From Amoebophrya sp. A120 (Eukaryota; Protista; Dinoflagellata): 64,000 nucleotides of DNA. Shown here in pieces: positions 1-64,000 of the stretch. Each line of letters opens with the position of its first letter. Positions within the stretch are counted from its first letter, which is position 1. The stretch is from the NCBI GenBank assembly GCA_905178155.1, contig CAJINV010000019.1:688475-752474 (forward strand). The letters run 5' to 3'. The translations under genes were made by a program, and so were the position numbers. The notes under the pieces were generated by a model. It saw only the letters and a list, made by a program, of their open reading frames with translations. It was not told the origin of the DNA and searched no databases.

Positions 1-115
1 ACAGAAGGTCTGGCATGGAAGCTTTAGAATCACAGGTTTCGAGAAGCTTCCGCAATGCCGAATCCGCATGACCAATTTCTCATTTTGGTGACAGAAAGTG
101 GGCAGCTTTTGCTGC

Positions 116-3100
116 CTACGCATGAGAGATTTTTATGTGTTGTGAAATGCGCATCACAAGTTTGCATTCTTCTAGAGCTGGATATATTTGCAATGCATAA
201 CTGCCATCGCAACTCTCCTCGAAGTCCCAAGGCCCGTCGGCGAGAAAATCCTCCTGGTTCCTCGGATCTTCAAAGTGCGCAGCAAGTGCGTTGCTCGTCC
301 CAGCAGCGCTTGTTTCCTGACCGGGAATAAACGACCCTTCTTGTTGGCTTTCATACTGCAGTTTTTCGATCTTCCTTTTCTTCGACGATTTATTTTTCAA
401 TCTTCTACTTTTCTTCGGAAACAAGGGCGGGCTGCTTTCCGTCACCAAGCTTCTCTCGATTTCCGTCGCGATTTCTTCCTTCATCCTCTTCCCAGTTGCG
501 GAATTCGCGTTAGAAAGTTGCGCATTTGACAGCACTCCAGATTCACTGTACTCATAATCGGAGCTGTTGCCATCTTCTTCCTCCGTATCGGAATTTTGAT
601 TTTCGCCATGATCTTGCTCTTCGTTACTCCGCATGGTCTCCTTTCCGAATTTCGCGTAGAATTCGTTGTTCAGCTGCACAATGTTCTTCAAATTTCCCAC
701 GTTGTTTTCGAGGATGATCACCCGGTTTTCCAAATTCGTATTTTCCTCTTCCAAAACTTGCTTCTCGTCCTCCAATAGACCACATTTATCCTTCAATTCA
801 TTTTGGATCTCCGCATATCAAATGCAAAACTGTCTGGGTCTGGAAGATTCCCAGGTTTGTCATGCATATTTTGCATGACCAATGACGCCTGTAATGCATG
901 CCCTAGCATCCCAGATTTTTAGAAGGCTTCCTGATGCGTATTCCGCACGAGAAATGACCCGCCCGTGTAGCACAAACTGGACTCCCATTGCTAGTCATGC
1001 AATACAGATTTTTTTGGAATCCAAAGACAGCATCACAAGTTACCACCTTCCAGACCCAGACATTTTTGCATTTGATACCGCAGATTCGCGCTCCATCTGC
1101 AGCTTGTGCTCTTCCAATTCCTTGAAGTCCTTTTCCAACTCAGTAATTTTCGTTTTTGCCTTCTCGAATTCCTCGCTTTGTTCTGTGTACCGGAATTCCG
1201 CAAGTGTCTTTTGCTCTTCAAACAACTTATTTTCCGTTTCTAATTCCTTGTTTTTCAAATCCGCTTTTTCGGAATCTTTTTTCACTGTCGCCAATTCGTC
1301 CCTCAGACTATTCGTCTCAGTGACTTGCTCCCGGTAGTGCTGCCGGAGTTCGGTGGTTTGAGATTTCTCAGTGGAAAAAGAGTCTTCTAACTTCTCGAGC
1401 AATTCACTTTTTTCCTTCAGCGTTTTACTCATCGAGTCGAAATCTCGTTGTAAATCCTGCAACTCCAAAACTTGATTCTCCACTAATTCCGACTGCTTTT
1501 CCAAATCGAACCGGAACCTTTCCGCCTCCAAGCATTTCTGCTCAAACGCTTCACTCGTTTTTGCTAGATTTTCCTTCAAGGCTTTGATTGTTTCTTCAAA
1601 GTTGTTTTGCTCTGTTCTTCTATCCTCTTCGACCTTGCTGAACTTCACGAGGAAGTCCTGCACGCACAAGTCTAGGGACTTCGATTTCTGGTCCAAGTCG
1701 TTGATCAACTCGTCTTTCTGTTCAAGCTGCCCCGCGAGGTCGACGTTTGCGGACCGGAGTTGCACCTGCTCCTTCTCGTAATCGTCGACAATCTTCTTCT
1801 TTTCGTAGTTCAAAGTATCAATCAGTTTTTCCTGTTGTTTTGCTTTTTCCGCTTGCTTCGCAGTTGTTTGCTGAATTGATTCGAGCTCTTTCTCTAGTTT
1901 CTGTTTTTCCTTTTCCACATCTATCAACTGTTCCTTGAATTTCTGGATCTCCGCTAACAAATTCCTGCTGTTCGTCACGGAAGTTTTGTTCTCCTCCTGC
2001 TTCTATGAATTGCAAAAATGTCTGGCTCTGGAAGATTGCAACTTGTCATGGTAAATCTGAAGCATGCAAAAATCTGTGTTGCATGAGTGCCAAAAGCTGT
2101 CCACTTTTGACCAAGTTGGAACGGAGTTTCTCATGTAGAATAGGCACGGCAGAGACCTCGCAGAGTGTGTCATGCTAAGTCCCGCATCTCAGACCTCATG
2201 GGTCATGGAAAATCTGCATGACAAGTCTACACTCTTCCAGACATCCAGGGATTTTTGCAGTTGATAGCTTCAATAAAATTTCCGCCTCCAGCTGTTCATT
2301 CCGCTTTTGCAGTATCAAATGCAGCAAATATGTCTGGGTCTGGAAGATTGCGAGACTTGTCATGCTAGTCTTGCATGATTCTGCACTCTGTATTGCGTGG
2401 CCACCAAGAGGTCCTCTTGCCTGTCGTGCAAAAGCGCAGTTGCTCATGCAAAATACGCAGTACAGAAGCACGAAAAAACTTGCCATGCTTGGCGGCGCAT
2501 TACAGAGCGGTTATTGTTCACTGAATTGCATCACAAGTTTCCAGACCCCCAGACATATTTGCAATGCATATGCAGCCGGTTCATGACATTCTTCGCCCGC
2601 TGCTTCTCGCTATCTAGTTCGAGTTCCAGCTCGTTGCACTTTTTCTGGAACAATTTCGCGGACTCCGCTTCCGCTTGCAGCTGGCTGTACTCTTGGTCTT
2701 TCTCCAACTGTTTGAATTCTTCGATTTTTTTATCCTGAGTAAAAGCGTCCCCATACCAGAGTCAACATGGGAAATCTGCTAGACAAATCAGCAAACTTTG
2801 GTTATTTCGCATGGCCAGTTCGTCCTCGTAGTGTAACCCTGCTTAGCCAGTTGGGCAGCATCACAGATCTACCGTATCATGCTATTTCTAGGATGACAAA
2901 TCCCAAAACACGACTAGAAAAAGCTCCTCATGGGGCTTCGCATGAGAAACTTTTTTGGCATGCAGATTTGCATGATGATAAGTCTGGGGTGGGGATGTTT
3001 TTACTCAGAATATTTTTCCGCGCGGATTTCCCGTTCCTGCTGGAAATCCTCTTCGTTTTTATGCTGTGCAAAAGTATCGCAATCGTACTAATTGCAAATA

Positions 3101-4924
3101 TGCATGACAAATCTCCCTCCTGTATGGTAAAACAGCATTACAAATTCCATTGTTCTTCTTGCCAAAATTTGTAATGCAATTTGAACTAGAACTAGTACGT
3201 TTTACTTTTGCAGTTCATAGTTTTTCGCAACTTTTAACTGCTCCTGGACAATCAGCTCGACTAATTCACTATGGATTGCAAAAATGTCTGGGTCTGGAAG
3301 ATTGCCAGGTTTGTCATGCGCATTTTGCATGACTCCTGATGTCTGTGATGCATGCCCTAGCGTCACAGATCTTGTGAGGGCTTCCTGATGCCTATACCGC
3401 ATGGCAAATGCTCTTTCCGTGTAGCAAAACTCGGAGTCTCTTTGCTGCTCATGCAATACAGATTTTTTTAGAATCCAAAATCAGCATGACAAGTTGGAAT
3501 CTTCCAGACCCAGACATTTTTACAGTTGATATTCACGCGTCTGGTCGTCGAGAAACCTGTGTATTTGTGTTGCATACGACGTAGAAGTACCAATAATAGC
3601 CGCGTCCGCGGAGGTAGTGAGGTCATGGCGGTCTTTTTGTCTTCACGCCAAAAAAAGACGCAACTTCTCTGCCCGCCATGCCATCGTGAGTAATGTTATG
3701 CACGACGGCACGGCGGTCGCTAAAAGTATCGAGCTAGAGCTGGCCTCCATTTGGTTTCGAATCGAAAAACCTTCCCCGCATGCTATGGCCCCGCCAGGGC
3801 CCGAGCCAGGGGCGGCCCCTTGGGAGCCCCAAATCGGGCCCATAGCATGCGGATTGGCTTTTTGCTTTTGGCGGGCTTTGTTTTTTTTGTTTTTTTTTGT
3901 CAAAACGCCGCATCTTCTGGCCTTAAGTCCGCCTCTGAAATGGCGGATCTTGAAGGCGTTTTTTACGGGGCCCGAATGTGGGCCAAAATGAGGCCCATAC
4001 CATGCGGATTCGCTGTTTTTTTCGGAGTGCTACTTTTTGGGCGCCCCTTTTTGGGCGCCCCAAACCGCCAGAAACTAAGGCGGTGGGCGCCTCAGAAGGG
4101 CGCCCCTTTTGCCGGCTCCCCTGCGTCGTTTTATCAAGCGGGAATCGATAGTTTTCGACCGGGCTTGTTTGATGGCAAAGCCCCGGCCGCTTGATAATTG
4201 GAAATTTTTTATGCTCAAAAACACCTCCGGCCACTTGAAAACTGCCGGTCGTTTTGCGTGATGCATGGCAAAAAGATCGCTAGGATAGAACGTTCGTGAC
4301 CTCACTACATATGAGCGTCGTGTAGATTGTACGCATTTATTTTTGTCAAGAATGCACATGCAGATGCAACATCCATGGCGAAAACACTTTAAAAGCAACG
4401 GAAGCTGCAACTTCTAATCCATGAGAACCAAAAAAATCAGTCCTCCACCTTAGCGGTTCGTAAAACATTGTGTTCGGAGCGATCGCCGGTACAACGCCGT
4501 CGCTGCCAACAACATGATGAATCTGCTGCGCCTCCGCTGCGCCACTTGCAGTTCCCACGCTGGTCCGGCCCGGCCTCGCTTGATCGCGCAGCATTGAGAC
4601 CTCCTGCAAGTACGCTTTCTGCGATTCGGCTTTCTGCTTCGTGAGCAGAGCATTTTTCTGCTCGGCATCTTGCAGCTTCTTCTGTTCTTTGGACAAGAGG
4701 TCGAAGGTTTTCTTGAAAACGAGCTCCAGAAGCTCCTCATCCGTAGTCTTCGGCAGGGAGTACTTCAGCCGGCGAGCATAGTCGGCGTAGGTGGTAAGCT
4801 GCGTTGTTGGTTGTTGGGTAGTTGTGGGGGGAAGTAGGGACGTGGACGAAGAATTGTGGCCGCTCAACACCCCGCCGCCGTTCCGCGGCGGGTAATTTTT
4901 GTCGAGAAGATTATGGAGACTCAT
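116..4924 (-). CDS. Long coiled-coil protein, 799 aa after splicing (6 introners plus one GT-AG intron at 3557-4448)
   Basis: ORF pieces join in frame when each element plus one 5-bp repeat is removed (MERESA|EIQNELKDKC, EILLK|QEENK, AEK|IEEF, FYEPLR|FLDDQTREL). Spliced length is 2400 nt. E/K/Q/L heptad-rich. Confidence 0.85.
816..1077. mobile_element. Introner family A (TIR TATCAAATGCAAA..TGTCTGGGTCTGGAAG)
   Basis: ~30-bp TIR; direct repeat CCGCA at 811-815 and 1078-1082; removal restores frame. Confidence 0.92.
2004..2266. mobile_element. Introner family A
   Basis: TIR; direct repeat GCTTC; frame restored. Confidence 0.9.
2313..2570. mobile_element. Introner family A
   Basis: TIR; direct repeat TGCAG; frame restored. 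Confidence 0.9.
2731..3012. mobile_element. Introner family B (TIR TATCCTGAGTAAAA)
   Basis: TIR; direct repeat TTTTT; same TIR as 55842-56121. Confidence 0.88.
3060..3219. mobile_element. Introner family C (short; TIR TAT.CTGTGCAAAAGTA)
   Basis: TIR; direct repeat GTTTT; frame restored. Confidence 0.88.
3270..3531. mobile_element. Introner family A
   Basis: TIR; direct repeat TTCAC; frame restored. Confidence 0.9.
3614..4308. mobile_element. MITE-like GC-rich element inside the canonical intron
   Basis: Perfect 12-bp inverted repeat GTAGTGAGGTCA/TGACCTCACTAC, imperfect subterminal inverted repeat, many GGGCCC/GGCGCC palindromes; no TSD found. Confidence 0.45.
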
Positions 4925-8230: not shown

Positions 8231-10269
8231 TTTGCTTTCCCAGGGACTAATTCCTTCGTGCAAAAATTCTATAGACTGACGCAGTGTCTTGCTTGTTATT
8301 TCAAAAATGTGGCAAAGTTCTTGTGCTGTGCGGACGTGCTACAACACTTACAAGCGACAGGCACTGTCGTAGATAATAATACCGATGTTGCAAACAACCT
8401 TCTTATCCTATCAAAGTCTTGGATCAGGGCAACGCTTGTTCGTCTTTCCTGAAAGTCTTCTTAAACTACGATGCGATAAGAGGAGCAAAAATCGCAATCG
8501 GTTGGAGTTGGATGGTATTAATCAGGGGCCTGCTGGATGAATCGAGGTGGTTCAAAATAATCGATCTCTGACACGATTCATCACACCATAGGACCGATCT
8601 TCAGAAGTAGCTGGATATCCTGCGCAAAAATATCGCACTCGTAGTATTTGCATCGTTGGAGATTTGGAAAAGGAAAACAAGTCACTACGTAGCATAGGCG
8701 GGGCACTCAATCAGCGGCACACAATTCATAGATTGCATCGCACAAAAATTGTGATTTTCTGAAGATGCGGATCAACGTTATTCAGCCTCGTACAGGCCTC
8801 GGGGTTGAGCTTGGACCATCAACATCAATTTTGTTGAACGCTACCTCCCCGGATCAATCAATGGAATTTCAGAGCTGCATTTTTGGAATTCAGAGCTTCG
8901 GTTTTTCATCGAAAAATGATCTACCCCGGAAAACAAAGCAGATCTCGAACGCGTAAGTGAACAGTTTTTTTTTATTTTTGTGTAGCGTAATAAACATGCA
9001 GTCAAGTGCTGTACCGACGATTTTTTGGAAAACAAATTTGGTAGACAAGAGGCAGATCTGTCATGCGGGACAATCGTGATTGCTAAAAACGGTAGGATGC
9101 TCCTTTTGCAATGCATACCGCCAGGGAGACTTTGGACTCGACCAACGCGGTCAGGGCGAGAAACTGGTCCTTGGTGACCAAGGCAGATTTTTTGAGATTC
9201 ATCGCAGGCAGAGTCTGTGTGCTGTCACCTGCCTGTATGGAACTGTCAAGCGTTACAGTCTCAACTGTTACATACGTTTGTCATGCAAAACTGGCATCAA
9301 TATCCACACGATGTTGAAGCTGCCTCGCATGAGAAAATTTGGTCACTGATGAGCTGTACTTATCTTCGCATGCAGTACATCGTAGCGCGCCTTGACGTCG
9401 GCGCGCAAGACGTCAATCTTTGCCTGGCAAGGGTGAGGGTAACTTTTCTCGAGGAGGTTATGGACGACTTTTACGTTCGACCGACACTTTGGATTTCGAA
9501 GGGACCACGACGCGACAGGATTTGAAAATGATACTGAATATGACTGTGTAAACCGCATGATCAGAGCAATAAGAAGCAACGAATCCGACACAAAAGATGC
9601 ACATCACAACCAAAAAGAACACGCAACCCGAATAACGATAGTCAGACGAAAGTAGGCATTGCCTTTTCGTGGAACTACGCTTGCATTTTTTATGAAGAAA
9701 TTTACTGCGGACGACTGAAAGTAGGAGTTTCGTTGCCCCACACGATGATGTTGAGCCACCTCGCTTCATTCCTTCTTTCAGATGAGAGATTGAAAAGAGT
9801 TTTCTCTAATGATGGGGGAAAGCAAATGCGGGAAAAGTTCTGGATAAAAGCATGACAAATTTTCTTTCGGATGTATTTCTGGTCGTTGCGTTTCTCTAAG
9901 TTCGCTACTCTTTCACTGCAAGATTAAAAATACAGTGTAAAAGTAGTGCACCTTTTTTCTGTTACAACTTTAGTACTAACGCTTTTACCGAGGAGCAAAA
10001 TCAAAAAGCAGCTGGGTTACAGCTGTCTTTAAATACCTAAAAGTGGAAACTGAGAAAAACTTCTCTTCTGTGCGTGTAAAGAATTACGCCGGTCGGCGAA
10101 AAACTGAAAAATGCGACGTATAGGGAATAGCAAAATGGTGCAAGTTTTGAAAGGTTGATCTAAAGTATGAATGTGCGAATGTAAAGTGGAAAATGAAAAT
10201 GTAGCTATGTATACTATTGTTGAAAAAAAAATGCAAAATGCTAATTCAATTGGAAATCCGAAATACTTG

Positions 10270-13200
10270 TTACTTGTCGTCGTTGTAATATGGGTTGGCA
10301 TTCGATTGCAAAGTTAGGAAGTCGTCGTCGTCTCCTGAATTACTCCTTCCATAGCACTGCGGGTCCTGTAGTTTCTCTTTTGACAGCGATCTGCTCATCG
10401 CTTTTCCTAGCGCTTTCTTCTTCTGTTTCTCATAACTCATTTGTCGATTTAGTTTCTTTTGCTCCGCGGCTTCCTGTGCGTCGGCAAGCAGCGCCGGATC
10501 GATCGCGAAGTTGCCACTCGAGCTGACTTATGCATTGCAAATATGGCTGGGTCTGGAAGAGTGTAAAACAAGTTTTTCATGACCTATGAGGTCTGCTTCT
10601 GGAATGCGGAACCTAGCATGAGAGACTGTGTGAGGTCTCTGTCATGCCTATCCAGCATCAGAAACTGTGTGAGGTCTCTGTCATGCAATACAGATTTTTG
10701 CATGATTCGGATTTAGCATGACAAGTTTGGATTCTTCCAGACCCAGACATACTTATTTGCATTTCATATGACTAGCTCGTCTTCGCTCACCTGTACAATC
10801 ACGGAGGGCACACTGTCCGTCTGCCGGGTACCCCTCGCTAGTGTTTCGGCGGATTTCTCGTGGGCGGGGGCCTTGGATGCGGCACTCCCCGCTTTCGTCT
10901 TTTTCTTGTGCAGTTCCGCCTCCTTAGACGCTTGCCTCACAAACCCGTGCGCATTCGCTACCTTTTTCACACCAGAAGCCGGGCTCGGCTTTCTGGCACC
11001 TGCGGCGCTAGTACTTTTCATCGCAGATGAAGTGGAATTAGTGCTTTTCGCCGACGCGTTGCTTTTCATCGATGCGGCCGCAGCGCTCCTGGCGGCGGCC
11101 GAACTTGCGGCATCTTTGCCGAAGGTCATGTTGCCGCTCTTTAGCATGTCGTAGTTGTCGGATCTGCCCGCGATGGAGTTGCCCTGGGCGCTGAAGTCGT
11201 CGGATTTTTTCTCGTGCGCAAAATGGCCTGAGTACTGCTCCCCGGTGGCCGCAGCGTTCTTCGCTGCCTCAGCTGCAGATGTCCCGCCCGGTGGAATATT
11301 GTGATGTTGACCGTGATGTCCCCCACCTCCGATGTTATCTATTTGGGTTTTGTAACCGCCAGAAGCGAAGGCGCTGCTTCCCGGCTCGGATTCCTCGCTG
11401 GCGGTCCCGGCAGTTTTCGCACTACTCGGTCCCCCAATTTTTGCGCCCGGTTCGCCGTGCGATTTCTGCACTTTGCCCTCGCCGCTGACCTCCACGACCA
11501 CCATGACATCCGACTTCTTCTTGGTGTCTGTAGCAACCTCCGTCCCCGTCTGTTTTGACCGCTGGCCCCGCGACACCTTCGATCGCAGTTGCGTGCCCCG
11601 AGATTTGGCCTTTCGGGTCGCGCGGATCTGGTCTATCACTTTTTTCCGCTGTTTCTCTAACGCCTTCATAAACGGCCCGACCTGTGCGCAAAACACCTTG
11701 TCTTCTCGCTTCTGCTTTTTCATCTCTAACGAGGACCACTCATAGCCGCCAGAACTTCGCTTACTCCAATCAGTGCGGTGCGTCGCGCGCGACGGTACCG
11801 TGGAGGCTTTGCTTGTTGGTTCTTTGGCAGCTGCTCCGATCTGGTCGGTTTTCCGGGAGCCCTGGCTGCGAGGGCCTTTGTCATAATTTCCGGTGTCCGA
11901 CTGTTCGCTGGCGCTGCTCCCCGTTTCTTCGCCGAATCGCGACAAGTTCTCCCGCTCCCCCTCAGCGCGGTTTTTGCTCATCGCTTTCGCGGCAACAGCG
12001 TCCACATCCGCTTCGACGCGACTGCCTTGCCCTATGGGGTTCTCAAACGTTACATTCTCAACTGTTGCATGATTTGTCATGCAAAAACGCTATTGCTCTG
12101 CACACCATCAAGCCTTCTTTGCATCACAAGTTCTCGACGCGCTAGATAGCATTATAATCTGCTCCAAGCCTGTAATGCAAAAGGCGCAACCTTTTCCCTT
12201 TCACTTTTGCCATTCTTGCATCACAAATTCATGTAACAGTTGAGAATGCAACAATTGAGAATTCCATATGCCCGGTCGCCCGACTGTCCAGCTCGCGCCG
12301 CACGCCGTCGGACTTTTGATCTGTGGCGCGGGAAGGTGATTTTTGCTTCTTAGTCGCGCCGGTCTCTGTTTCTGTTTCTGACTCCGTGGACGTCGCCGCG
12401 CCGGTCCGTTTGCTGGCATCGGAGAGTATGTCGGACTCGGACAGAAACTCGAGTTCTTTATTCTTTCCGTGGACCACCACCATGCCCGGGATCTTTTTGA
12501 TATAGGAATTGATCCCGGACTCGGTTATATCCGGGTACTTGCCCCCCTCCGGGTGGTACCCCGCGCCTATGTCCTTCAGCGGCCCGAGGAAGGAAACCTC
12601 TTCGCTGAACTTGTAGTAGATGTCCAGCAACACCGCCTCCTCTAGGAAATAGTCGTCTTCGTCGTCGCTCAAATCCAACAGCCGTCCCCTCTCGAGGTCG
12701 GTGTCGCTATCGGAGGAAGTATTATCCCCACCAGCTTTTCTACTTTTGTTCTTTGCCGCGTGGTTGAAGCGCTTCTGTTTCCACACCAGGTTACTCCCCG
12801 CGGGGTAGTAGCTCAGCCGCACGTAGGCGCGTTCAAACACCATGTGGTACACGTGCCTCGCGCCCCACATCTGGATCCCGTCGGGGTACTTAAAGTCTTT
12901 ATCGGCGGTCCCGCGCTGCCCACAGCAGTACGGAATGACAAACGCGAATAGATAGAGCGGGAACAAAAGAATCGACCCGATCCAGCTCAAGATGATAAAC
13001 GCCGCGTTTTGCTTCGTCCCGTCCGTGCCGGGATTTTTCTGCCGGCACCCGCAGCACAGCGCCGGCGCGCAGCAGCAACACAGGGACTCGAACCACTGCT
13101 CATTCGCCAAGTACTCGGCGAAAAGTTTTGCATACTCATCGTCCCAGGTGGAATAGCAGATGATTTCGCCCAAATCAAGCTTCCCGAGTTCGGGGCATTC

Positions 13201-50000: not shown

Positions 50001-52562
50001 CCACGGGTCGGGATTCTGGTGGTCTAGCAACGCGGCGACACAGCTTTGGAGCAGCGCAAAGCGAACCATGTCTAGCCCTTTCTCTTGCTCCGACTCATCG
50101 AAATACTTTTCCCTCTCCATCCTCGCCTGCTCGTCTTTCACGACCTTGAGGGCCATATTGCTCTCCAGACATAAAACTTTTCCGCAGTGCTTTGCCGTCT
50201 CCACCATCTCCTTAGTCCAGAACAGCAGTCGTGCGTATGCCCGCTGCGTTTCGGCGCCAAATTCATGCCGGCGGAAAGGTGATTTCGCCTGGTCTTTGGC
50301 TGCTTCGAACTCCTGGTAGGTGGCGCGCTCAGTAGTTGTAGAGGTTTTATGGTTGTCGTTGTTGTTTTTCTCCAGTTGACACACCTCCTGTCGCTGTCTC
50401 TCAAACACGTCCATCACGCCCGGCAGCGCGACGGTCGCTGCGAAGGAAAGATTACATAGCTCCTTCACCGCTTCTTCTTTCACATCAGCAGCAAAGTTCT
50501 TGAACATCTGCAGCGTGCCGGTCCCGCGGTCCCAGGCCTTTCGCTTGGCGCGCAGAGCTGGGGATGGAGACTCGAGATAAACGAAAAAGGGATGCCCGGG
50601 TGGATCATAGAAATCTTCAGAACAACACGCATTTTCCAAAACGCCTCTTGTTCTTCTTGGTGGAATTAGCGACCGAGTTGTTGGAGACGGTGGAGATAAT
50701 GATGATGCAAAAAATCCCCTCGTCGCGACAAAGTTAGTAACGAACTCTCCGAGCAAATTCACAATCGCGTCTGGGACGGCCTCGTTCTTGGCACGGAGAA
50801 TGTCCGCGAGAATTCGCCAGGCCCGAAAACTGTCCACGTCGAGCACGCAAGCAATCAGCGCCGCCCGGATGGCCTCGGCTGACAAGTGGTTCGATTGGTA
50901 AAAGCAGTAGCCGTAACTGGCGTAACAACTGGACAGCTCAATTCGGTTGGGAATGCTGGCGAAAGCCCGGCGGTAGCACAGCAAAGCGAGTTCCGCCTCG
51001 TTGCCGGGGGACGTCAAGTCCTTCTTTCTCAGATCGCTATAAAGACTATACCGAAAGGAGCGATCGTCGCGTGTTTCGGCATCGTTTTTGTCCGTTTGAT
51101 TTCCTTGCCCAGCAGGATCCGGACGTTGAAAATACTGTTGCTCAAACTTTTGCCCCAGCGCGATCCAATCGCGAATGTCCTTCGGAAAGGCGGGCCAGGA
51201 GAGGATTGCTTGTGCTTCGGCTTTGTGCTCCACCGGCAGCGAGGAGGTGGACGTCGACGCACTAAGTACAATTTTGACCGTGAAGGTGCAACGAATACCG
51301 CTGAACGTGGGAGCTTCAATAGGCGTCGGTGCGCCCGATGCGGCAGTATTAACTTCATCAGGAGGACCACCATCATCATCATCAGCACAGCGATGGCTCA
51401 CTACAAGCGGCTCTAGCAGCATCAACCCAGTGCCAGGAGGGTATTTGTTTTCATCTTCACGTAGTTGGCACCAGTGTCCGCTGCCTCCTCTCTTCGTGTC
51501 GCTCGTAGAAGTTTCGGTTGTTCGCTTCTCCTTGTCCTTGCTTCTCTTACTGGCCTTCTCATTGTTTCTTCTACTGCTAGGCTTATCGTGGTCTTCTTTG
51601 CGTTTGTCGGCTACTCCTACTTCTGGTTCTGCTCCAGGAGCCGAGACTTCGCGCGCCGGCAAGCCAACGTCGTTCTTGCCACGACTGGCATTGACATTAA
51701 GGCTATAATCTGGTCGGGCAAGGTGGTCGGTTCTTGTTTTATCCTGCTGAGCAACTGCGTCAAGTGGAAGTGGTGCAACATTTGTGCCTGTCTCATAGAT
51801 GATGATCTGCAGCAGGTCTCCGAAGAGGTCTTCGAAGAGAAAAGTCGTGGCAATGTTTTCTCGCGATCCGCTTGATTGTGTGGCGGCAACGATAGCAGCA
51901 CTATCTTCTGTTACCCCACTTCCGGCTGCGTTTACCTTCGCTTGCTTTCCTCCGGCGTTTCTAATTTTCTTGTCCATGTCCTCTCCCGCGCGGCTGGCTG
52001 CTGCAGAACTGGCACCGGATGCGGCGGCCTTATTCCGTCCCGGTTTTGCAATCTGCCCCGCAGTCTTAAGTTGTGGTGCCTTACTCAGAGCAACAGCATC
52101 GTTACAACCGTTCGCAGTCGATGTCGTTCCGCTTCCGGTTTTTTCCTCCACAGCAGCCACACGGCCGCACAGGTAGTAGCCTCTGTGCTTGAGCTCATTC
52201 GAAGAGGTCGCGTCTTCCGACGGAGTTGCACCGTCAAATTCTGCCGCGAGCAAAGCATTTTCGTGCAAATTTGCCAGTTCCCGGAGGGAGTAAATGGGCC
52301 GCAGGGACGAGAGGGAAGGTGGTGCCGGGGGAGTAACGGTTCTTGCTGCAGTATGGTGATCCTCTGGAGAACTTTTGTCATTGGCCGTATTCTCGTGGTC
52401 ATCTTGAAGATGATGAATGCCTTCACTAAAAACTTTTGCGATATCTGAAGTGTTGTCTACCTCCGGGGCATTTGTGGAAGTACATGTGCTGACGAGATTG
52501 CTCACCCCCGCGTTCTTGCCGGCGCGCGCTTCCAGCACGTCGTTCTCTTCTAAATCGAACAT
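38086..52562 (-). CDS. Giant 3725-aa protein with TPR-like helices and two copies of an uncharacterised domain
   Basis: 2873-aa ORF continues through 6 introners (LVGSG|KRK, KPS|VAP, TTH|VQVGF, QELM|SAK, CPID|HVIQVWY, PKS|ISWTNE); spliced 11178 nt; four of these joins rebuild motifs that are uninterrupted in the first copy. Confidence 0.85.
39003..39267. mobile_element. Introner family A
   Basis: Direct repeat decayed (GCATT/GGACT); join validated by the internal paralogous motif SWTNE.DRY. Confidence 0.85.
40282..40551. mobile_element. Introner family A
   Basis: Direct repeat TCGAT. Confidence 0.9.
40910..41065. mobile_element. Introner family C
   Basis: Direct repeat CATCA. Confidence 0.9.
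41105..41326. mobile_element. Introner family G (TIR TATGA..GTGCACAACTC)
   Basis: Direct repeat ACGTG; splits TTHV|QVGF. Confidence 0.88.
41530..42030. repeat. Tandem array, 3 units of ~160-170 bp containing CACACCCC(A/C)GA subrepeats
   Basis: Units begin GCTTTGG..TG.GTTCTGGGGTATGTAA at about 41541, 41711 and 41871. Confidence 0.9.
42200..43132. repeat. Tandem array, about 10 units of ~96 bp, most with a GCGGGGAC-TCG-GTCCCCGC hairpin
   Basis: Recurring GGGACTCGGTCCCCGCG.CATGACCTAGGGGCCAG. Confidence 0.92.
43734..43988. mobile_element. Introner family H (TIR ...TGCTCAG.TGTTACAATCTCAAACG)
   Basis: Direct repeat TCCAC; ~50-bp TIR. Confidence 0.9.
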
Positions 52563-53231: not shown

Positions 53232-56197
53232 TCATCGCTCGTCCTCTGGAGAGTGAATGTGAAGATGCTGCGCATGTTCGTCATTTATTTCGTCAAGCTT
53301 TTGTAGTTCCGAATCCGAGCCAGCGTCTGCGTCAGACTCGTTTTCCATATCGGAAATTTCATCTTCCTCACAGCTTTCTTCCTTGACAATGGCTCCGCGG
53401 CCACCTGGTTCAGCAGGACCCGCCTCGTCGTCATCTCCACAGCCTCCTGTTGCTCCTTCCGCATAGTTGTACGCATGATTGCAAAGGTCATCATGCCCCC
53501 TGGCGTTCGCTTCCGAGCTCTCTTCATGCCCTGTCGCTTGCTTCTCGGGCTCGGCACAAAAGCTAGGGTCGTCAAGAGAATGAGAATTGTTTTCAGGGTG
53601 CTCGTGATTGTCGTCGTCCCCGTTAGATTGTGATTGACCTTGAAGATGGCTTTGTTGATCATCTGCAAATAATCCCCCTGGAGATTGAAGATCATTCGTT
53701 CCCGCCGTCGTGCGAGGTTGGTTCCCGTTCATCGTCACCAGTTTTTTATCCACTTCTCCGCTCGACAATGCAGTTCCAGTTCCCGCAGCTGGTGCCGTGA
53801 CTGTTCCCAACTTCGGATTTTCCGGATGTTCCAAAATCCGGAACATCACCTTCCGCCCGGAAAGTTTGAAATACTCGGCATACAAATTGTCCTTGACAAA
53901 CTTCCGCAGCACCCCCTTCGCCTTTTCGTACACTAATTCAGAGTTCGCAACCACGGAAATTTGGTACTGGTGGTTGGAACGAGATACAGGATGATGGTCG
54001 TGGTGTTCATCTTGGAGCTGCTGTCCTGAAGAAGATCCTCCTGCTGCTGCTGCTGTCTCCATGGAGGAAGTTTGTCCAGCTGCTGCGGCTGGACCAGCAG
54101 TCTTCTGCGCGACGTTCTTGTGCTTCTTAACTAGCTTGAAAGTCACACCCCCGCTGGCGCACGATTTTTCTAAGTCCAGGATCGTTTTCGCTGTCAGGTA
54201 TTTGCTCATCAGTTCTTGCACCTGATGCTTGATATCACACAGAAAAAAGCTGGCAGGGCAGACTTGTAATGCTAAAATAAATACACAAAAAAATTTGCAT
54301 TGCTTACCCTAATCAGCATGCTATGGGGCTGCCCATGACAGATTTTTCTGCGTGTTTATTTTTGCATTACAAATGTGCCCTGCCAGCTTTTTTGTTTTTC
54401 TGTGGGATACTGGAAATCGTGGTTGTTTCGCCCGTTTAGTCCCCGCAGGTTGTTTCGTGGATGAAGCTGCACAGAAGTCGCGGTTGAACCCGCCGAAGAA
54501 CCAAAAGTACAAGATGTTGACACGACGATCCCAGAAGCAGCTCCGGTTAATACAGGGCCAAATTCTACTTCACCTCCAGCACCTCCACGAGCGGGCGCCA
54601 CGTCGTCTATTCCAATCGGCACTATGCAGAGCCACTTCAGGGTTCTCTGCAACACAGTGACCTCCTCGTCCTTTGCGAGTAGAATCCGCTGCTGCCACTT
54701 TTTTTCCATCTGCTGCTTTTTCCGCTGCTGTTGGTAGTACCGCTTCACTTCCTTGTTATACGCCGCGTAGGCGGTAGCAGTACTGTGCGACGGATAGTAG
54801 TAGTTTTTAGTACTCGCGAATAGAGCAGCAGAGGGGAAGTAGGGAGGGGTGTGTGTTGATGCTGCGTCCTCAACATCCAAAATCAAATCCGTCCCATTCA
54901 CATGGTACTTCGCAAGGCGGTCGTTTTGAAGTTCATGCTTTGATGGAAGCTTGTGCAACTTGTCCGGTAGTTGCTCCATCTGCGAGGACAATGTAGAACT
55001 TGTCCTTTCGTTGCTGCTCGAAAAGAAATTCATCGCTTTTTTCACCTCATCATCCCCAACAACTTCTTTTCCATACTTCAACGGGAAAACGTGCTCGGTG
55101 CCTCGTTCCAGGGACCGTCCGACACACCACGCCATTTCGTCGCAAAACAAAATTTCCATGAGCTCGCCGAGGAAAAAGAGGTCGCGGTTGCGTTTTTTGA
55201 TGATCTTCACAATTGGGAAGGGAAAGGTTGAGGATTGGTCTTGCTGGTCATGGTTTCCCGCTGTCGTCGCATCATGATGTACAAGTTCCGTTGCGCTGTC
55301 GGGGGTGGTGCTAAAATTCTTCTCCTCCGATGAAGATGATCGATGAGGACCAAGAACAACTTCCGGATCAACATTCGACGTTTTTTTCCTGCCGCCACCA
55401 AGAGCAAGAAGAGCAGCGGCATCGGGGTTTTGGTACTGCAGATCCTCGGCGAAACTACTGGAAATTTCGGAGATGGTTGAAGTTCTGGGGTTGTTGTCTT
55501 CTAGTACCACATCACCAGCATCTTCTGCAGACTGCCTGCCTTGACCTTGTACTTGTGCCTCGTTTATTGTCGTAGTGGATTCGGCGTCGGCGTCGACGCA
55601 TGGTGGTTTGCGTTTGTCTTCAAATGCAGATAAATTCGAGCGGCTGGTGGTGGTGTCCACTTCTTTTGAGAAGTAGTTCTCTTTTTTATTCTGCGCGATT
55701 CCTGCAACTACAGGCAGATCATCGTCGTGTTCAATGGTCGTGTCTTGGTCGCTCCCATGGCCATGCAGCAGCTCTTGGCTTTCTGTCTCATCATCTTCCT
55801 CGACTTCGTCTAGCAGAAAGTCGTGAAGATGCACGGCATCATATCCTGAGTAAAAACGTACCCACACCAGAGTTGTAATGCAGATTTGCAAAGACAGGAA
55901 GACTTGTAATGCGCATCCCCATGAGAGCCATTTCCAATCGTGTTTTGGAATTTGTGATGCTGTGAACAGGATGAGCAGACGAATCTGTGACGCGGCTGCA
56001 CTTGCTACCCTGCACTACACTGCATAGCGAAACCTGTCATGCGTGACTCACAAAACTCCTAGGTTTGTGTATGCAAAATCCTCATCCTGACTCTGGTGTG
56101 GGTACGTTTTTACTCAGGATACATCAAAACTGTCCGTCTGGGTCTGCTGCTGGACCACATAGAAGTCGTCCAGATCGAAACCCTCGAGGAAATCCAT
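53232..56197 (-). CDS. Uncharacterised 832-aa protein with an SH3-like segment (2 introners)
   Basis: Joins TDSFD|AVHL and HDFQ|HQVQEL; spliced 2499 nt; GELMEIL...AWCVGRSLERGTEHVFPLKY resembles SH3. Confidence 0.75.
54233..54409. mobile_element. Introner family I (almost complete fold-back)
   Basis: ~60-70-bp TIR TATCACACAG..AAAAGCTGGCAGGGCA; direct repeat CTTGA/CTGGA. Confidence 0.88.
55842..56121. mobile_element. Introner family B
   Basis: Perfect TIR TATCCTGAGTAAAAACGTACCCACACCAGAGT; direct repeat CATCA. Confidence 0.92.
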
Positions 56198-57396: not shown

Positions 57397-60300
57397 TCAC
57401 ACCGGCAGCGCCCCGGGAAATTTGATGGGCATGGCCATCGGGTGGGCTTCCGTATCCAAGGAAAAAACTGTGTAGGTGTAAAGTAATTTTCTTGGAGGAA
57501 TAGCATCACAAGTTTGCTCTGCATGACACAGAAAACCTGTCATGCGTATCCAGTACCTGAAAACACGAAGGAAAGAGCCTCTGATGCACATCCAGCATGA
57601 CAAGTGTAGCAGTTTTGCACTTTCTGCATCACAGACTTACACTCACATAGTTCTTTTCTTGCATATTCCGTGCTGATGATGTACTTGCTCAAGTCCAGGA
57701 TTGTGATGGGGGAAAAAATCAGGTAGAAGTATTTCATCGTTTCGGCCATGAAGAAGGATTCCTGCTGGTTACTCCGGACCGACGGATTCCGCACGTCCCG
57801 CAACGCGGTGTAACCGTATTTGGTCTTCGAGTGCTTCTTGAACGCCAAAAACATTATCACACAGACAAAACAAAAAGCTGGCAGGGCATATAATTTGTAA
57901 TGCAAAAATAAACACACACAAAAATTTGTCATGGGTGGCCCCATAGCATGCTGTTTCCGATATGCAATACAGGTTTTTTTGTGTATTTATTTTTGCATTA
58001 CAAATGTGCCCTGCCAGCTTTTTTCTGTGTGATAAACATCTCGGTCGCCCACTTCCGGTATTTCGGGTCCCCGGTGTAGTAGTGCAGGTAGTACAGATAT
58101 GCAGTGCAGATATGTCTGGGGTCTGGAAAAGTAAGAGCAAGGTTTGTCATGCCAGGCTAGCAAGACTCCCAAGTCTGTCATGCACGTTACCCAAAAGCCC
58201 TATTTTTCCGCGATACAGAGACGCAGTTTGTCATGCAGAATAGGCAACACGAACACTTAGAAGCTCAGAATAAACTTGTCATGATGAGCCATCATTTGTG
58301 GCCTCCTCATGCTACGTCACTCAGCATTACAAGTTTATTCCAGACCCAGATAAGTATATTTGCATTTGATAACAGAGCCTCGATCGCTTCCGGCCGAAGC
58401 AAATTGTGCGCGCCGTCGGGCGGGAGCACCATATCGTTCGCATTATCCTTGGCATTCACGTCGAAACGGACATACTCCGGGGAGAGACCGGTGTGCGCGA
58501 GCTTGTACCTTGGTTTTGGTAGAATTATTGAGGGAGGAGTAGAGTTTGCATGATGAAAACGGATCACTCTTGGTTGTTTTTTGCATGATCGGTATAGAAG
58601 AGAGAACCACGAAGGAAATAAATGAAGTTGTACTACGGTATTACATTTTGTAACAGGTTTCCGCAACTCCTTCCGCCGCCGGAAGCCACCTTGGGTCCAC
58701 CTCTTCCTTGTCTAGTTCGAGGATCCCGAGTATCAACATGCCCGGCACGAAGCAGGCCAAGTGGTCCATCTTGTCCAACCGCTTTCCCGCATTCTCTTCC
58801 GCGATGAAAATGGTGCCCTTTTTGGTTTTCACCACGAGCCGGTCCATCATTTCATTCATGGCCTTCACGAATAATGCCTTGTACCTGATTTATATTTTTG
58901 TAAGAAATTGAAATTGCCATCCGCATCTTCACGCGCGCTGACTGTGACTATCTCCTTCTACTTTTTCCTTCTGGAAGATGACAAAAAGCTAAATTTTCGA
59001 ATACAAAACAGGCATGAAAATAAAAAAACGAAGCATCACTATCATAATACCGTGCGTCCCTCTTCCCGTTCTGTAGCCACTGCTTCACTAGATATTCGTA
59101 GTAACTGTCCCCCATTGCCCCGAGACTTATCCTCCCTCCGATGAACCCGCTGTGCGCGGACTGCTGTTTCGACCCCATGTAGATCGGCACCAAACCCTTC
59201 TTCGCGTTTTCGCTGTTCTCGACGATCTTCATGAACGCTTTATCTGGCACGGTCCAGAATTCCGTCCTCTTTGTGTGCGCGGACAGCATGCGAAACTCCA
59301 GTTGCAAGGTTCCGACTTCTGCGATGTTTGTGCCCGTCGCCCAGTTATGGATTGCAAATATGTCTGGGTCTGGAAGAATGCAGGGCCTGTCATGCTTGTC
59401 TGGCATGACCCATGATGCTTGTGATGCATGACCCAGCATCACAGATTTTTGGAAGGCTTCCTGATGCCATTTCTGCATGACAAATGCCCTCCACGCGTAG
59501 CACAAATGCGGCTCCTCTACTTGCTGGTCATGCAATACAGATTTTTTTAGAGTCCACAGTTAGCATCACAAGTTCCAACTTTCCAGACCAAGACATTTTT
59601 ACAGTTGATACCAGTTCAGCCACCTGCTACCGCCGGATGCGAGGTCTATCTGGGGTTTTGGTAGCCCGGACTCCTGGGTGAAAGCGCGGAGCAATCTGGA
59701 ACCCAAATCCGCTGCTTTGTCGAGAAAAATCTGGTGCTGGGACAGCGAGAAGGCCGAGAGCAGCCCACCGAGACCACGGATCGTGATTTCGAAGACGGAA
59801 TGGTAGCCAGATCTGTGATAACGATAAGGAAATTTGGCATGCGAAAATGGATAAGTACGCAAACACAAGTTGTGTTCATCGTTGTGATAGCTGCATCAAC
59901 ATCACATCACATCACCGCAATAATCACCTCCCACATCAGCACTTTTTACCTTATCGCCCCAAAGTCTAGTTTCTGGACGAAGTCCTCCCCCTCTGCAAAT
60001 TCTTTTTTCAGGTCCATCACCCACAGCGTGTCCAGCGAGTCTAGTATGGTGATCCCGATGGAGACCCAGTTGTGGCCTCCCCCGGTGACCGGGCGCACCT
60101 CGTCCTTGCCCCACGCGGTTGCCTTGTACCCCCGCCAGCAGTGCACCATCTCTTTCCGGACGGTTTCGGCCATGACGTCGGCGTCTCGTTGCGACTGGAC
60201 CAATTCGTCCTCGGAGAACTTTTCTTTCCATCGGGCGGGAAAACTTGCCTTCAACACGTCATCCGGGAGTGTCGCCCGCGGCTCCACGTCGGTAATGTCG

Positions 60301-62230
60301 GCTATGTATCAAATGCAAATATGTCTGGGTCCTCTGGAAGAATGCAGGAGTTTGTCATGCAGATTTTGCATGACCCATGATGTCTGTGATGCATGCCGTA
60401 GCATCACAGACTCTGCGAGGACTTTCTGATGCCCATACTGCATCAGAAATGCCCTCTCCGCGTAGCAACAAACTCGACTTCTTTTGCTGTTCATGCAATA
60501 CAGATTTTCTGTAGAATCGAAAGGTAGCATCACAAGTTGCATCCTTCCAGACATCCAGGGATATTTGCAATGCATACTATGAACGGCGGAGGGGTCCTGT
60601 TCCACCACCACGACTTTTATCGAAGAAAAAAAGTTCGTCACGATCACTCATGCGCATTCTTGCAATACAAAATTGTTTGTCATGCGTAAAAATGCATCAC
60701 AGACAAACTTCATTAGGGAGTTCCCTAGTGTTTCTGCAATACAAGGAAAGTTTGTGATGCTGAGAAAATTTGTAATGCAAATCCTGCAAGTTAGTGAGTG
60801 TGACAAACTTTTTTCTCTCCATAATTTTGTGGGGTCTTTCAGTTTCAACCTGGGTCTTCCTATTCTTTGCATCAGCATCACTCTCATCATCTTACCATCT
60901 TTCATCACGATATGGATGTGTCAGAGTTGAAATCGACAAAGTTGAAATAATTTGCCATGCATAAAATGGACGCCAGCTGGAACCCAGTTTCCAAGTGGCG
61001 CATGACAAATTTCGGCGGTCCCTAAATCCAGTCTGCCATGCTGTTTAGGCAAAGAAGAGCGATTTTCTCATGCTACTTTAGCAGCTCGATCTGTAACCCC
61101 AAACAGGCTGACAATCGGCCTCACTTGCCTGCTCTGCAACACACGTGCCTCGGGTCATGCATTTTATGCATTACAAATTATTTCAACTTTGACGATTTCA
61201 AACCTGACGCTTCCATACACGACGCGCGTCCGCTGCGCGGGTCCCCGCTTCGGCGGGAAGTACCGCCTTGTGGATTGCAAAAATGTCTGTGTAAACTTGT
61301 CATGCAGGTTTTCCATGACCCATGAGGTCTGGAATGCTGGACTTAGCATGACAGACTCTGTGAGGTCTTTGTCATGCCTATCCTGCATGAGAATCTCCAT
61401 TCCAACTTGGTCGAAAGTGGACAGCTTTTGCCGCTCATGCAACACAGATTCTTGCATGATTCGGATTTAGCATGACAAGTTGCAATCTTCCAGACCCAGA
61501 CATGTTTGCAATCCATACGCCTTCTCCGGAGCGGAATGCGGGCCTGCCGTCGGCGGAACGGAAACCGCGCCGGTCTCTGTTTGAGCCCGCTCAATACGGA
61601 CCAGCGGTGGGGAAACACCGACGGCGGGCGCGGGTTGATGTTCTGGTTGTTATGCAAGGAAGCGTCTTGTTGTGACAGGCTCGGAGTACTTGGTGGATTT
61701 CTTGCCGGCGGTTTCGGAAGAGGCGGTAAAACAGGTTGCGGCTGCTGCGGCTGCTGCTGCTGCGGCGGCGGCTGTTGTTGTGCAACTGCACCAGCATTGG
61801 GAAGGCTTTCTGCCGGCGGGGCGGCGAAAAAAGGCGGGAAAACCGGGTGAAAAAGCTGCGTCCGAGTCTGGTGTAGCAACTCGGGGTAACTGCTCTGGGC
61901 GCCGGACGCAGATTCTTGCACCGCTAGAGGTGCTGCCAGGACTAGTCGGCCACCGGGGGGCGGTGGGCTGGGGAGCAGGGGGAGATGGCCTGCATCGGCA
62001 GTCGCCCCCGCGACAGCTTTGTCGGCTGCCGTTGAAGTTGTACCAGTTGCACCAGCTTCCGCTTCGGCATTGGAAGCAATTTCCGATGCGAGTGCTACCT
62101 GGAAATAAAATAACGATCGCGAGTAGAGCAACAAAAAGCTGCTGCTCGCGCCGAAAAGTACTTGCGCTGGTGCCCCCTGTCGTGCTGCGGTACTCCTAAA
62201 ACCTCCTCGGCCGGCGCCTGCATTGCGCAT
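57397..62230 (-). CDS. Class I alpha-1,2-mannosidase (glycoside hydrolase family 47), 796 aa; 8 introners plus GT-AG introns 58509-58644, 58885-59050 and 59813-59949
   Basis: GH47 motifs AWGKDEVRP, LDSLDTL, SVFEITIRGLGGLLSA, AEVGTLQLEF, GAMGDSYYEYL, MDHLACF, LRPEAIEAL, ESFFMAETMKYFYL, STEAHP; spliced 2391 nt; start codon inferred. Confidence 0.93.
57453..57665. mobile_element. Introner family J
   Basis: Direct repeat TTCCG; splits the conserved TE|AHP motif. Confidence 0.9.
57855..58034. mobile_element. Introner family I
   Basis: Direct repeat AACAT; long TIR. Confidence 0.92.
58098..58371. mobile_element. Introner family A
   Basis: Direct repeat ACAGA; IEAL|YYLH. Confidence 0.92.
59346..59610. 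mobile_element. Introner family A
   Basis: Direct repeat CCAGT. Confidence 0.92.
60307..60576. mobile_element. Introner family A
   Basis: Direct repeat CTATG. Confidence 0.9.
60618..60823. mobile_element. Introner family K (TIR TAT.GA.GAAAAAAGTT.GTCAC)
   Basis: Direct repeat ACTTT/ATTTT; DPTK|SWWW in frame. Confidence 0.8.
60911..61217. mobile_element. Introner family E
   Basis: Direct repeat CACGA. Confidence 0.92.
61269..61517. mobile_element. Introner family A
   Basis: Direct repeat CGCCT; left end is TGT instead of TAT. Confidence 0.88.
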
Positions 62231-63105: not shown

Positions 63106-64000
63106 TCAGATAATGAAAATGGAAAAACTATGAAAAAAGCAGTACGGGGTCGATTTGAAGAGCGGCACCGGTTCTTTGCTGTCCAACGTTTTGTAGATTC
63201 CGATTTCCCTCGTTACCCTATTGACCACCGGCCCGGTAGACTGTCCAAACTGCACGTGCACTTTCATGCTACTCCGGTCTAGTAGGTGTTTGTTGTCGAT
63301 CAAATCGTCGAGTCTCGTTATCGTCGCGTCGAAGAACGCTTTTGCGTCGGGCCACGTGTAACTGTAGTACCGCGCGTCGAGCATGTATCCCATGAAGCCG
63401 TGCATGCCCTGCTGCTCCGGTTTGAAGCCGCCCAGGTAGAGCCGTATCCCACGAAAAAAGTGTTTCACTGTAAGGATTTTGCCAGTTTTGCATCACAAGT
63501 TCACTCTACATGACAGAGAAAATTTGCCATGCGAGGTTCCTAAGCGAAAACACAGCTAAAATCGATTGTCTTTCATGTGTAGCAAGACAAACACTTCGAA
63601 GATACTGATACATGTTTTGCATTACAAGTTTACAGTGAAACAGTTTTTTCCTGCGGTAGGCCGATCCGTCTCCCTATTGGCCACCATCCGCGGGAACAAA
63701 CCCCCGACGTAGACGGAACCCTTGCTGTAGATATCCCGGTTGGCTTCGGATGTGTCCGCGACAATCTTGTTCCCGATGTACCCATATGCAGTGAAAAAAT
63801 ATCGCACGTGCTAATCGCAATCACGCAAGACAAATCTCTTTCCCAAGCTCAATCAGCTTGAAAAACTCCATTTGTCACGCAGAGCTAAATTTGTATTGCA
63901 AGAAAAAGAATTAAGTAGATTGAGTACTAGCACGGGGACGATACTTTTGCCATTCATAACACAACAGCGCGATCGGGGTAAAAGGAGAAGCCGACCAAGG
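63106..64000 (-). CDS. 3' part of a gene with a LamG/concanavalin-like beta-sandwich domain; starts beyond the window
   Basis: Spliced LVGFSFYPDRAVV|YIGNK...DR|.YLGGF...FMGYMLDARYY; 3' end uncertain. Confidence 0.6.
63445..63658. mobile_element. Introner family J
   Basis: Direct repeat AGCCG/GGCCG; internal similarity to 57453-57665. Confidence 0.82.
63785..63958. mobile_element. Introner family C
   Basis: Direct repeat ACCCA/ACACA. Confidence 0.82.

Follow-up and report, generated by a model that had tools for sequence, protein, structure and literature searches.

Introners of Amoebophrya A120 were described by Farhat et al. in 2021 as non-canonical introns bearing inverted and direct repeats, the inverted repeats consisting of TAT, about seven variable bases, and then three or more A (PMC7789003). 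As far as excerpts of that report go, U1 snRNA is undetected in A120 and no transposase was found, the latter being taken by its authors to exclude general transposase-mediated mobilisation (PMC7789003). Gozashti et al. (2025) give family lengths of about 106, 149, 160, 208, 252-262, 278, 305, and 320 bp and assign hardly any A120 family to a superfamily. Their family 38, which has TA/TA ends and a 5-bp duplication and shows integrase-like homology, bears the label Ginger (PMC12130899). Both the movement and the splicing of these introns are stated as open questions in the excerpts of the literature on them, in which we found no report of the internal motif described here.

Several classes of mobile element offer partial parallels. 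In the subterminal repeats of hAT elements (Hermes, Tol2, Ac, Tag1), as in the elements described here, several short sites in both orientations lie inside the ends at position-critical spacing, and in Hermes the spaced sites are bound by an octamer, that is, by a multimeric transposase (PMC10368747). The Hermes site, however, is 4 bp with an AT-rich flank (PMC10368747), whereas ours is about 12 bp and fills the whole element; the typical hAT duplication is 8 bp rather than 5 bp, and here one motif is common to families whose inverted repeats align no further than about 15 bp. The hAT5 group, placed among animal Blackjack-type hATs, does have a 5-bp duplication (PMC12730594), and hATs characteristically carry subterminal repeats, but no hAT transposase was found here among the Pfam-searched open reading frames (ORFs). 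The IS3EU, GingerRoot, and Ginger elements share TA...TA ends (TAYGG...CCRTA in fungal IS3EU), long inverted repeats, and the lack of a strict target (PMC10045372, PMC6839031, PMC12730594); on the other hand, Ginger ends are TG...CA rather than TAT...ATA, the published excerpts describe no internal repeated site for any of them, and the usual duplication of IS3EU and GingerRoot is 6 bp, so that membership in those two groups was rejected on the 5-bp duplication.

The stretch analysed, here called the window, is 64 kb long and contains 42 curated elements (11,884 bp in total; Table 1), which match the published A120 introners in their repeats of TAT, about 7 nt, and an A-tract, in the direct repeat at the exon-intron boundary, in being repeated and removed from mRNA, and in their family lengths. 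TAT stands at both ends of 39 of the 42, the ends common to the families reading TAT(C/G)-N5-A-tract, and in external families A occupies positions 11-14 in 77-93%; a perfect 5-bp target duplication flanks 33, and its length is uniform in every intact copy, unlike the 3-5-nt direct repeats that the published excerpts give alongside end motifs. Excising an element with one duplication restored the reading frame in 21 of 21 cases and reopened six of seven gene stretches, the exception being 57300-58520, which failed to open fully and whose chosen bounds may overrun a stop codon. Since long frames reopen in this way, the elements are introns, and genes contain them in both orientations. GT-AG boundaries are usable, in any register, in just 1 of 33 elements. 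In run X1, element depth far exceeds flank depth, and the four elements of the glycosyl hydrolase 47 gene are missing, by length arithmetic, from contig X4, a putative RNA contig whose RNA status is guessed. Raw RNA runs X9 and X10 yielded 1 and 0 reads, too few to be informative.

Table 1. Positions of introner elements and other features in the 64-kb window.
Feature	Position	Strand	Remarks
Family A element cut by window start	1..198	.	right end, motif 151-159
A01, family A	816..1077	.	TAT...ATA, 5-bp duplication; 7 sites, inward ones 45 and 43 bp from ends
A02, family A	2004..2266	.	
A03, family A	2313..2570	.	
F01, family F	2731..3012	.	strict 9-mer absent; 5 matrix sites, 4 same direction
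B01, family B	3060..3219	.	outward sites, 46 bp from each end
A04, family A	3270..3531	.	
Truncated D-like left end	9237..9336	.	motif at 9278
A05, family A	10529..10768	.	
D01, family D	12033..12268	.	inward sites, 45 and 46 bp from ends
C01, family C	13366..13672	.	6 sites, inward 45/45
A06, family A	13751..14016	.	
B02, family B	14109..14258	.	
A07, family A	14690..14962	.	
B03, family B	15052..15201	.	
A08, family A	21069..21319	.	second copy 22365-22615, probable assembly duplication
B04, family B	21379..21531	.	second copy 22675-22827
H01, family H	25957..26261	.	inward 46/46
A09, family A	26309..26564	.	
D02, family D	26607..26833	.	
Degenerate copy, 109-bp family (cluster 9)	27634..27748	.	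motif at 27671
A10, family A	28027..28320	.	
K01, diverged, A-related	28384..28657	.	
A11, family A	28721..28973	.	
hAT-like element	29035..30180	.	TAG...CTA, 8-bp duplication; sites 41 bp (left), 35 bp (right) from ends
A12, family A	31320..31581	.	mutated right terminus
A13, family A	31641..31892	.	
B05, diverged, B-group	34737..34906	.	
A14, family A	39003..39267	.	intron of 3725-codon gene
A15, family A	40282..40551	.	in 3725-codon gene
B06, family B	40910..41065	.	in 3725-codon gene
L01, family L	41105..41326	.	in 3725-codon gene
C02, family C	41465..43565	.	in 3725-codon gene; ~1.8 kb tandem repeats between left inverted repeat and first motif
I01, family I (links to D)	43734..43988	.	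in 3725-codon gene
Long exon, negative control	43990..52562	-	zero strict motif
E01, family E	54233..54409	.	sites 35, 66 / 72, 41 bp from ends
F02, family F	55842..56121	.	five sites, single direction
G01, family G	57453..57665	.	glycosyl hydrolase 47 gene; missing from putative RNA contig
E02, family E	57855..58034	.	glycosyl hydrolase 47 gene; missing from putative RNA contig (length arithmetic)
A16, family A	58098..58371	.	glycosyl hydrolase 47 gene; missing from putative RNA contig (length arithmetic)
A17, family A	59346..59610	.	glycosyl hydrolase 47 gene; element and one duplication missing (length arithmetic)
A18, family A	60307..60576	.	
J01, family J	60618..60823	.	outermost sites outward
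C03, family C	60911..61217	.	
A19, family A	61269..61517	.	mutated left terminus
G02, family G	63445..63658	.	mutated right terminus
B07, B-group	63785..63958	.	

What unites these families beyond their ends, and has no counterpart in the published excerpts, is an internal motif with spacing rules. The 9-mer TTGTNATGC has 96 exact matches on both strands of the whole window, against 2.28 +/- 1.36 expected (100 dinucleotide shuffles, the largest giving 5). The curated elements hold 84 of these, with at least one in 38 of the 42; a truncated element, two duplicated copies, two fragments, and a hAT-like element account for a further 9, leaving three (9850, 20141, 61647) unexplained. The centre letter is C in 51 matches, G in 22, A in 22, and T in 1, and the full motif, aaYYTGTVATGC(a), is longer and more degenerate than the 9-mer. 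The initial annotation had proposed the 9-mer as common to differing introner families, and the sites it quoted are present, at 857(+) and 1030(-), at 3102(-), 3135(-), and 3169(+), at 13407(+) and 13488(+) with a variant near 13622, at 54264(+) and 54364(-), and at 60677, 60752, and 60770 (all +); the scarcity it saw in the exon at 43994-52562 extends to zero strict matches between 43842 and 54264. Its description of sites facing inward from both ends holds in part: the outermost site points inward at 60 of 84 element ends but outward at the other 24, including the example quoted at 3101-3178, and multiple sites in both orientations do lie inside both ends, but they also occur throughout the interior (2-7 sites per window element).

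With the matrix aaYYTGTVATGC trained each time without the family under test, the motif was detected in 12 of 12 window families at 0.73-2.34 sites per 100 bp, compared with 0.032-0.045 in background, so that the enrichment anticipated earlier appears in every family at 20-70 times background, and no shuffle equalled the observed count. In a related assembly, where elements were called by their ends alone, 334 of 346 contain the motif, as do seven of eight clusters without a curated window member; cluster 14, a single TAT...ATA element, has zero sites. For the Rpb1 of that assembly, the best relatives with names include Chromera and Toxoplasma; the link of these introners to A120 comes from their agreement with the published account. 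The motif in these introners is real.

The arrangement of the sites is also constrained. Elements usually carry 3-7 copies, the first inward site standing 35-36 or 43-47 bp from the tip in most lineages and the one after it frequently lying three helical turns (31-33 bp) farther along. Same-direction sites 31-33 bp apart occur in 10 of 12 family representatives (1.6 expected) and in a mean of 6.3 of 10 merged lineages (1.1 expected). A 10.2-10.5-bp period among same-direction and among convergent pairs (p<=0.0003 each) was seen in the window, and a general 10.4-bp lattice was not accepted as proven, the phase being non-significant in seven held-out families (p=0.24, 0.14, 0.71), three of which have the 31-33-bp spacing. 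Divergent pairs show no 10.4-bp phase at the lineage level (p=0.54), the same-direction phase is weak once gaps of 30-33 bp are removed (mean cosine 0.24), and element length has no 10.4-bp period (best 8.5).

Our preferred reading, to which we give a probability of roughly 0.6, is that aaYYTGTVATGC provides sites inside the elements at which one mobilising protein, common to all TAT...ATA introner families, binds double-stranded DNA. The common binding site proposed by the initial annotation is thus supported as a recognition site by enrichment, conservation, and spacing, with a DNA-level factor such as a transposase favoured and the splicing protein also suggested there disfavoured. As to which protein reads the motif, we infer a DDE transposase that acts as a multimer and is supplied in trans, an integrase-like type (IS3EU/GingerRoot/Ginger) being most likely and hAT5 less so; it would bind several sites along the same helical face, pair the ends, and cut at TAT. 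Copies that lose sites would be copied less often, so that motif and spacing would persist while spacers drift, and splicing would use the terminal hairpin and the duplication rather than the motif. Pfam searches returned zero transposase or integrase matches among 44 window ORFs, 221 (79 + 142) of the 448 locus ORFs of at least 170 aa, and 28 ORFs inside long elements (four of them window ORFs), and no autonomous TAT...ATA partner was found in the window and 141 loci. This outcome, the siteless cluster 14, the failure of phase in held-out families, and the strong folding of element RNAs speak against this reading.

Alternatively, a host-encoded sequence-specific protein that binds or bends DNA may aid unrelated transposases or mark chromatin, the superfamilies having converged on its motif; we consider this unlikely. 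Strand-blindness and the 31-33-bp spacing are equally compatible with it, as is the lack of a transposase among the Pfam-searched ORFs. The hAT-like element, where a motif variant had been noticed earlier, indeed bears two near-terminal sites, with a further variant within its left terminus, and with its different ends and 8-bp duplication it also speaks against one family-specific transposase; it is, however, a single post hoc case without a close relative in the 141 loci, the only non-TAT carrier found, and near-end sites are missing from the other elements with inverted repeats in those loci. Outside recognised elements a residual rate of 0.45-0.72 per kb, several times that of shuffles, could reflect such a host role, but the residual matches inspected often resemble decayed or rare TAT elements, and 2355 of 2494 strong sites in the 141 loci fall within sequence matching TAT families. 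A bolder reading, which we hold to be rather improbable, has a single protein missed by standard searches, whether a host factor that was domesticated or an integrase-like transposase that has diverged highly, recognising a phased 12-bp code on DNA. Through it, thousands of introner families as well as elements with other ends would be licensed to spread, and the same binding might mark them for non-spliceosomal removal during transcription.

The motif might instead act in RNA, single-stranded or within a stem, as a signal recognised by the apparatus that cuts out these non-canonical introns, a proposal that we regard as quite improbable. It draws on the apparently exact removal of the elements as introns, on the rarity of usable GT-AG boundaries, which calls for some non-standard recognition, on the undetected U1 snRNA (PMC7789003), and on the strong hairpins of element RNAs (z -8.9 and -5.0), some motif sites lying within stems; moreover, a pair of inward-facing sites would read the same whichever way the element is oriented. 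Against it, the motif strand at each end varies by family, C02 has no motif beside its left end, the first lying 1.8 kb away, and yet sits within an intact 3725-codon frame, and family F, in which 16 of 25 copies have 4-5 sites that all point the same way, occurs in genes in both orientations (8:5). Relative to transcription, motif strands within elements stand at 580:653, near symmetry with a slight departure from 1:1 (p=0.04, the sites not being independent), and at 29:39 in other non-coding DNA, and none of 10 families shows an orientation bias. Of 39 short gaps that lie between coding segments and are free of elements, 4 have the motif and 35 lack it; these gaps and the strand ratios do not fit a general splicing signal carried by ordinary introns on the sense strand. 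The small strand bias, the one-direction family, and the 35 motif-free gaps together favour a double-stranded DNA site. T is almost absent from the motif centre (8 of 1681 sites), and the centre letters of the outermost left and right sites differ in 103 of 141 family A copies, so these paired sites mostly mismatch at the centre; both observations argue that it is their sequence that is read and that pairing is not what maintains the sites.

That the motif is a functionless remnant, left by common ancestry or by duplication within a single ancestral element, is very unlikely and as a sole cause largely refuted: the families share their ends and duplication length, masked profiles join several of them, and G, J, and B have a similar three-site layout, but masked cross-family alignments score at shuffle level except for D-I, motif columns exceed spacers in conservation within families, the centre letter wanders between C, G, and A yet avoids T, and the 31-33-bp spacing persists across layouts of opposite polarity. 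The question raised earlier of whether the families are alignable thus has a divided answer, most being unalignable once the motif is masked and some being linked at the profile level (A-K, the B group, and G-cluster 7, more weakly D/I-L and F-H), which leaves about 10 independent lineages rather than 20. When sites were defined on the majority sequence of each family, conservation was higher in motif columns than in spacers in eight of 10 families at p<0.01, the centre letter being spacer-like in most, and between nearest copies motif positions still diverge at about half the spacer rate, a comparison that does not separate selection on copying from selection on the host. The common ends suggest deep shared ancestry, but ancestry alone fails to account for the selective retention of the motif.

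The uniform end, the 5-bp duplication, and the spaced motif suggest that these many families ride one system. The motif can be used directly as pull-down bait and as a signature in searching for the missing autonomous element, and it divides the element into one portion with a probable role in mobility and another with a probable role in splicing. In viral contigs the family A pattern had 0 matches, and a two-site pattern was set aside as chance, 109 of its 120 loci having only 2-3 sites. The motif also resembles the animal Sox-Oct composite site, which we take to be a coincidence.

On its two strands together, the window holds 96 matches to the 9-mer TTGTNATGC, compared with 2.28 ± 1.36 (maximum 5) in 100 dinucleotide shuffles; the motif coordinates quoted in the initial annotation were all borne out, and an 8.6-kb exon has zero matches. 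Elements were initially called on inverted ends and flanking duplications without use of the motif, a search that returned a uniform anatomy, and the 42 curated elements include some imperfect-end copies added by eye, partly led by motif clusters. Of these elements, 39 start with TAT and end with ATA, 33 have a perfect 5-bp target duplication, and together they contain 84 of the 96 matches. Another nine are accounted for by a truncated copy, two fragments, two copies in a duplicated stretch and one hAT-like element, and three are without explanation. Element counts omit the second of two tandem near-identical copies (table), a repeat that is probably an assembly duplication.

The motif is real and selected. 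When the 42 elements were grouped by their ends into 12 families (A–L), the most widespread 7-mer obtained without any prior, TGTCATG, occurred in 11 of them, and a matrix trained without each family and then scored on that family recovered sites in all 12. Enrichment over background likewise held for every family, with 0.73–2.34 sites per 100 bp in held-out families versus 0.032–0.045 in 50.6 kb of background, and with observed counts unmatched by any shuffle (30 for family A, 100 for each of the others); the full motif reads aaYYTGTVATGC(a). A metagenome scan with a family A pattern yielded 149 stretches, representing 141 loci, and the contigs listed all belong to one assembly. Elements there share 77–97% identity with their best counterparts in the window; unique window DNA gave no match. 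YTGTVATGC occurs at least once in 334, and at least twice in 302, of 346 short external elements called there on ends and duplication alone; the family A seeds are biased because the seed pattern included the motif, and the other families entered via the flanks of seeded stretches. Among eight clusters of external elements with no curated window member, seven have sites and one has none; the siteless exception among 20 clusters is a 111-bp palindrome that sits within the end of a C-family element and scores zero matrix sites. When sites were taken from family majority sequences, conservation was higher in motif columns than in spacers in eight of ten families (0.81 versus 0.64 in A, 0.88 versus 0.67 in H; p=0.24 and p=0.07 in the other two).

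The caveat that the families might prove alignable is partly warranted, since masked profiles join several of them, yet about 10 lineages stay separate after merging. With the motif masked, local alignment scores had within-family medians of 28–186 and cross-family medians of 16–26, D–I excepted (34), shuffled pairs scoring 19.6 ± 2.6; more sensitive profiles, with extra copies added, joined A to K, B to four small clusters and G to cluster 7, with weaker links between D/I and L and between F and H. The shared ends make deep common ancestry likely. Within single copies of all families, inverted-repeat bases 4–10 are mostly unlike between the two ends (all of the first 10 bases agree in 23 of 177 copies for family A and in 1 of 47 for family B); they comprise few variants, from a pool common to A and B, and in close pairs change faster than the spacer, a variability that may arise from end swapping or error-prone repair.

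Sites are spread across the whole element, 3–7 of them in 325 of 346 external copies, and in most lineages the first inward site lies 35–36 or 43–47 bp from the tip. The description of sites as facing inward applies to the outermost site at 60 of 84 window ends, whereas at 24, including those of families B and J, it points outward. Same-direction spacing of 31–33 bp occurs in 10 of 12 family representatives against 1.6 expected (p<=0.0003), and after lineage merging in a mean of 6.3 of 10 against 1.1. A 10.2–10.5-bp period peak is present in the window for same-direction and convergent distances (p<=0.0003 each; p=0.007 for divergent ones); it was not significant in seven held-out families (p=0.24, 0.14, 0.71), divergent gaps showed no helical phase at lineage level, and the phase signal is weak once 30–33-bp gaps are taken out. 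The robust geometry is a three-turn spacing unit, a general lattice being unproven.

The word probably acts at the DNA level. Relative to gene direction, as predicted by a codon model, its strands within elements divide 580:653 (p=0.04, the sites being non-independent; a further 918 had no assignable gene), and orientation bias is absent from every family. In family F, 16 of 25 copies point all of their four or five sites the same way, and the family is inserted in genes both ways round, so its sites can neither pair mutually nor present a fixed RNA word. Centre letters number C 885, G 476, A 312 and T 8; between the outermost left and right sites they are unlike in 103 of the 141 copies of family A and mostly agree in family H (27 of 33). 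Of 39 short gaps that separate coding segments and contain no element, only 4 have a site, and in C02, an element inside an intact 3725-codon frame, 1.8 kb of repeats separate the left end from the first site. Element RNAs fold strongly, which may serve splicing via a terminal stem.

We predict that the word is a double-stranded DNA binding site for a multimeric protein that would pair element ends, and put at roughly 60% the probability that it is a shared transposase site. The common recognition site proposed earlier is favoured by a conserved, spaced, strand-blind word, with a transposase likelier than a splicing/excision factor as its reader. The transposase itself was not found by Pfam in 44 window ORFs, 221 locus ORFs or 28 ORFs within long elements, four of which are also among the window ORFs. 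Alternatively, a host factor may bind the word: the hAT-like element, with an 8-bp duplication unlike the 5 bp of TAT elements, carries sites close to both termini, as had been noted, although it is a single case. Elements with large insertions, one of them between Rpb1 exons at L183, encode no recognisable protein. A ~720-bp repeat, tentatively Helentron-like by resemblance, contains no strong word site.

For a shared transposase site, the Hermes octamer on position-critical subterminal repeats would be the closest working model (PMC10368747). TA...TA ends suggest integrase-like IS3EU/GingerRoot, although those elements produce 6-bp rather than 5-bp duplications (PMC10045372, PMC6839031); hAT5 is also defined by 5-bp duplications (PMC12730594), and A120 family 38, labelled Ginger and listed as having a 5-bp duplication between TA/TA ends and flank, shows homology to LTR-element integrase regions (PMC12130899). 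The window elements match published A120 introners (PMC7789003), a match that, together with alveolate Rpb1 relatives, underlies the host assignment. In the portions of the literature searched, including the text of two supplements, neither the internal word nor its spacing is described, and the passages covered of PMC12005148, PMC9860276 and PMC4455052 add nothing on the word. Because subterminal repeats are already known as a kind, the internal word and its spacing are a variant, not a separate category.

Coordinates of features in the window and in metagenome loci (L-numbers) of the related assembly
Feature	Position	Observation
hAT-like element	29035-30180	TAG...CTA ends
Direct repeat around hAT-like element	28974-29014; 30195-30241; 31151-31197	41–47 bp, three copies
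~720-bp repeat	3590-4315; L183:5142-5904	78% identity; 12-bp inverted pair near ends, small hairpin, no clear duplication
Tandem near-identical copies	21049-22341; 22343-23635	split by the window's only N (22342)
~550-bp dispersed direct duplication	16050-16620; 19950-20520	non-coding; one copy contains stray match 20141
Large internal insertions/tandem repeats	41465-43565; L134:505-1608; L139:632-1465; L183:9985-10956	
Siteless palindromic element	L131:1846-1956	TAT...ATA, own 5-bp duplication
Exon without matches	43990-52562	
Tandem array	7500-8060	unit ~54 bp, within long open frames of both strands
Joint in X4 contig 10	60298-63141	63142-63440 joined to exon ending near 60297

The elements are introns. 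Excising an element with one duplication opens frames of 3725, 1100, 833, 608, 365 and 322 codons (6 of 7 stretches), and among 21 elements with coding segments on both sides the frame is restored every time, although element length is not a multiple of three. GT-AG is possible in any register in only 1 of 33 elements. Contig sequence from sequencing run X4, taken as RNA by guess only, is without elements G01, E02, A16 and A17, and its lengths fit loss of the element and one duplication, given one GT-AG intron per gap. With only 56 bases at its joint, X4 contig 10 suggests an isoform omitting most of 60600-63100.
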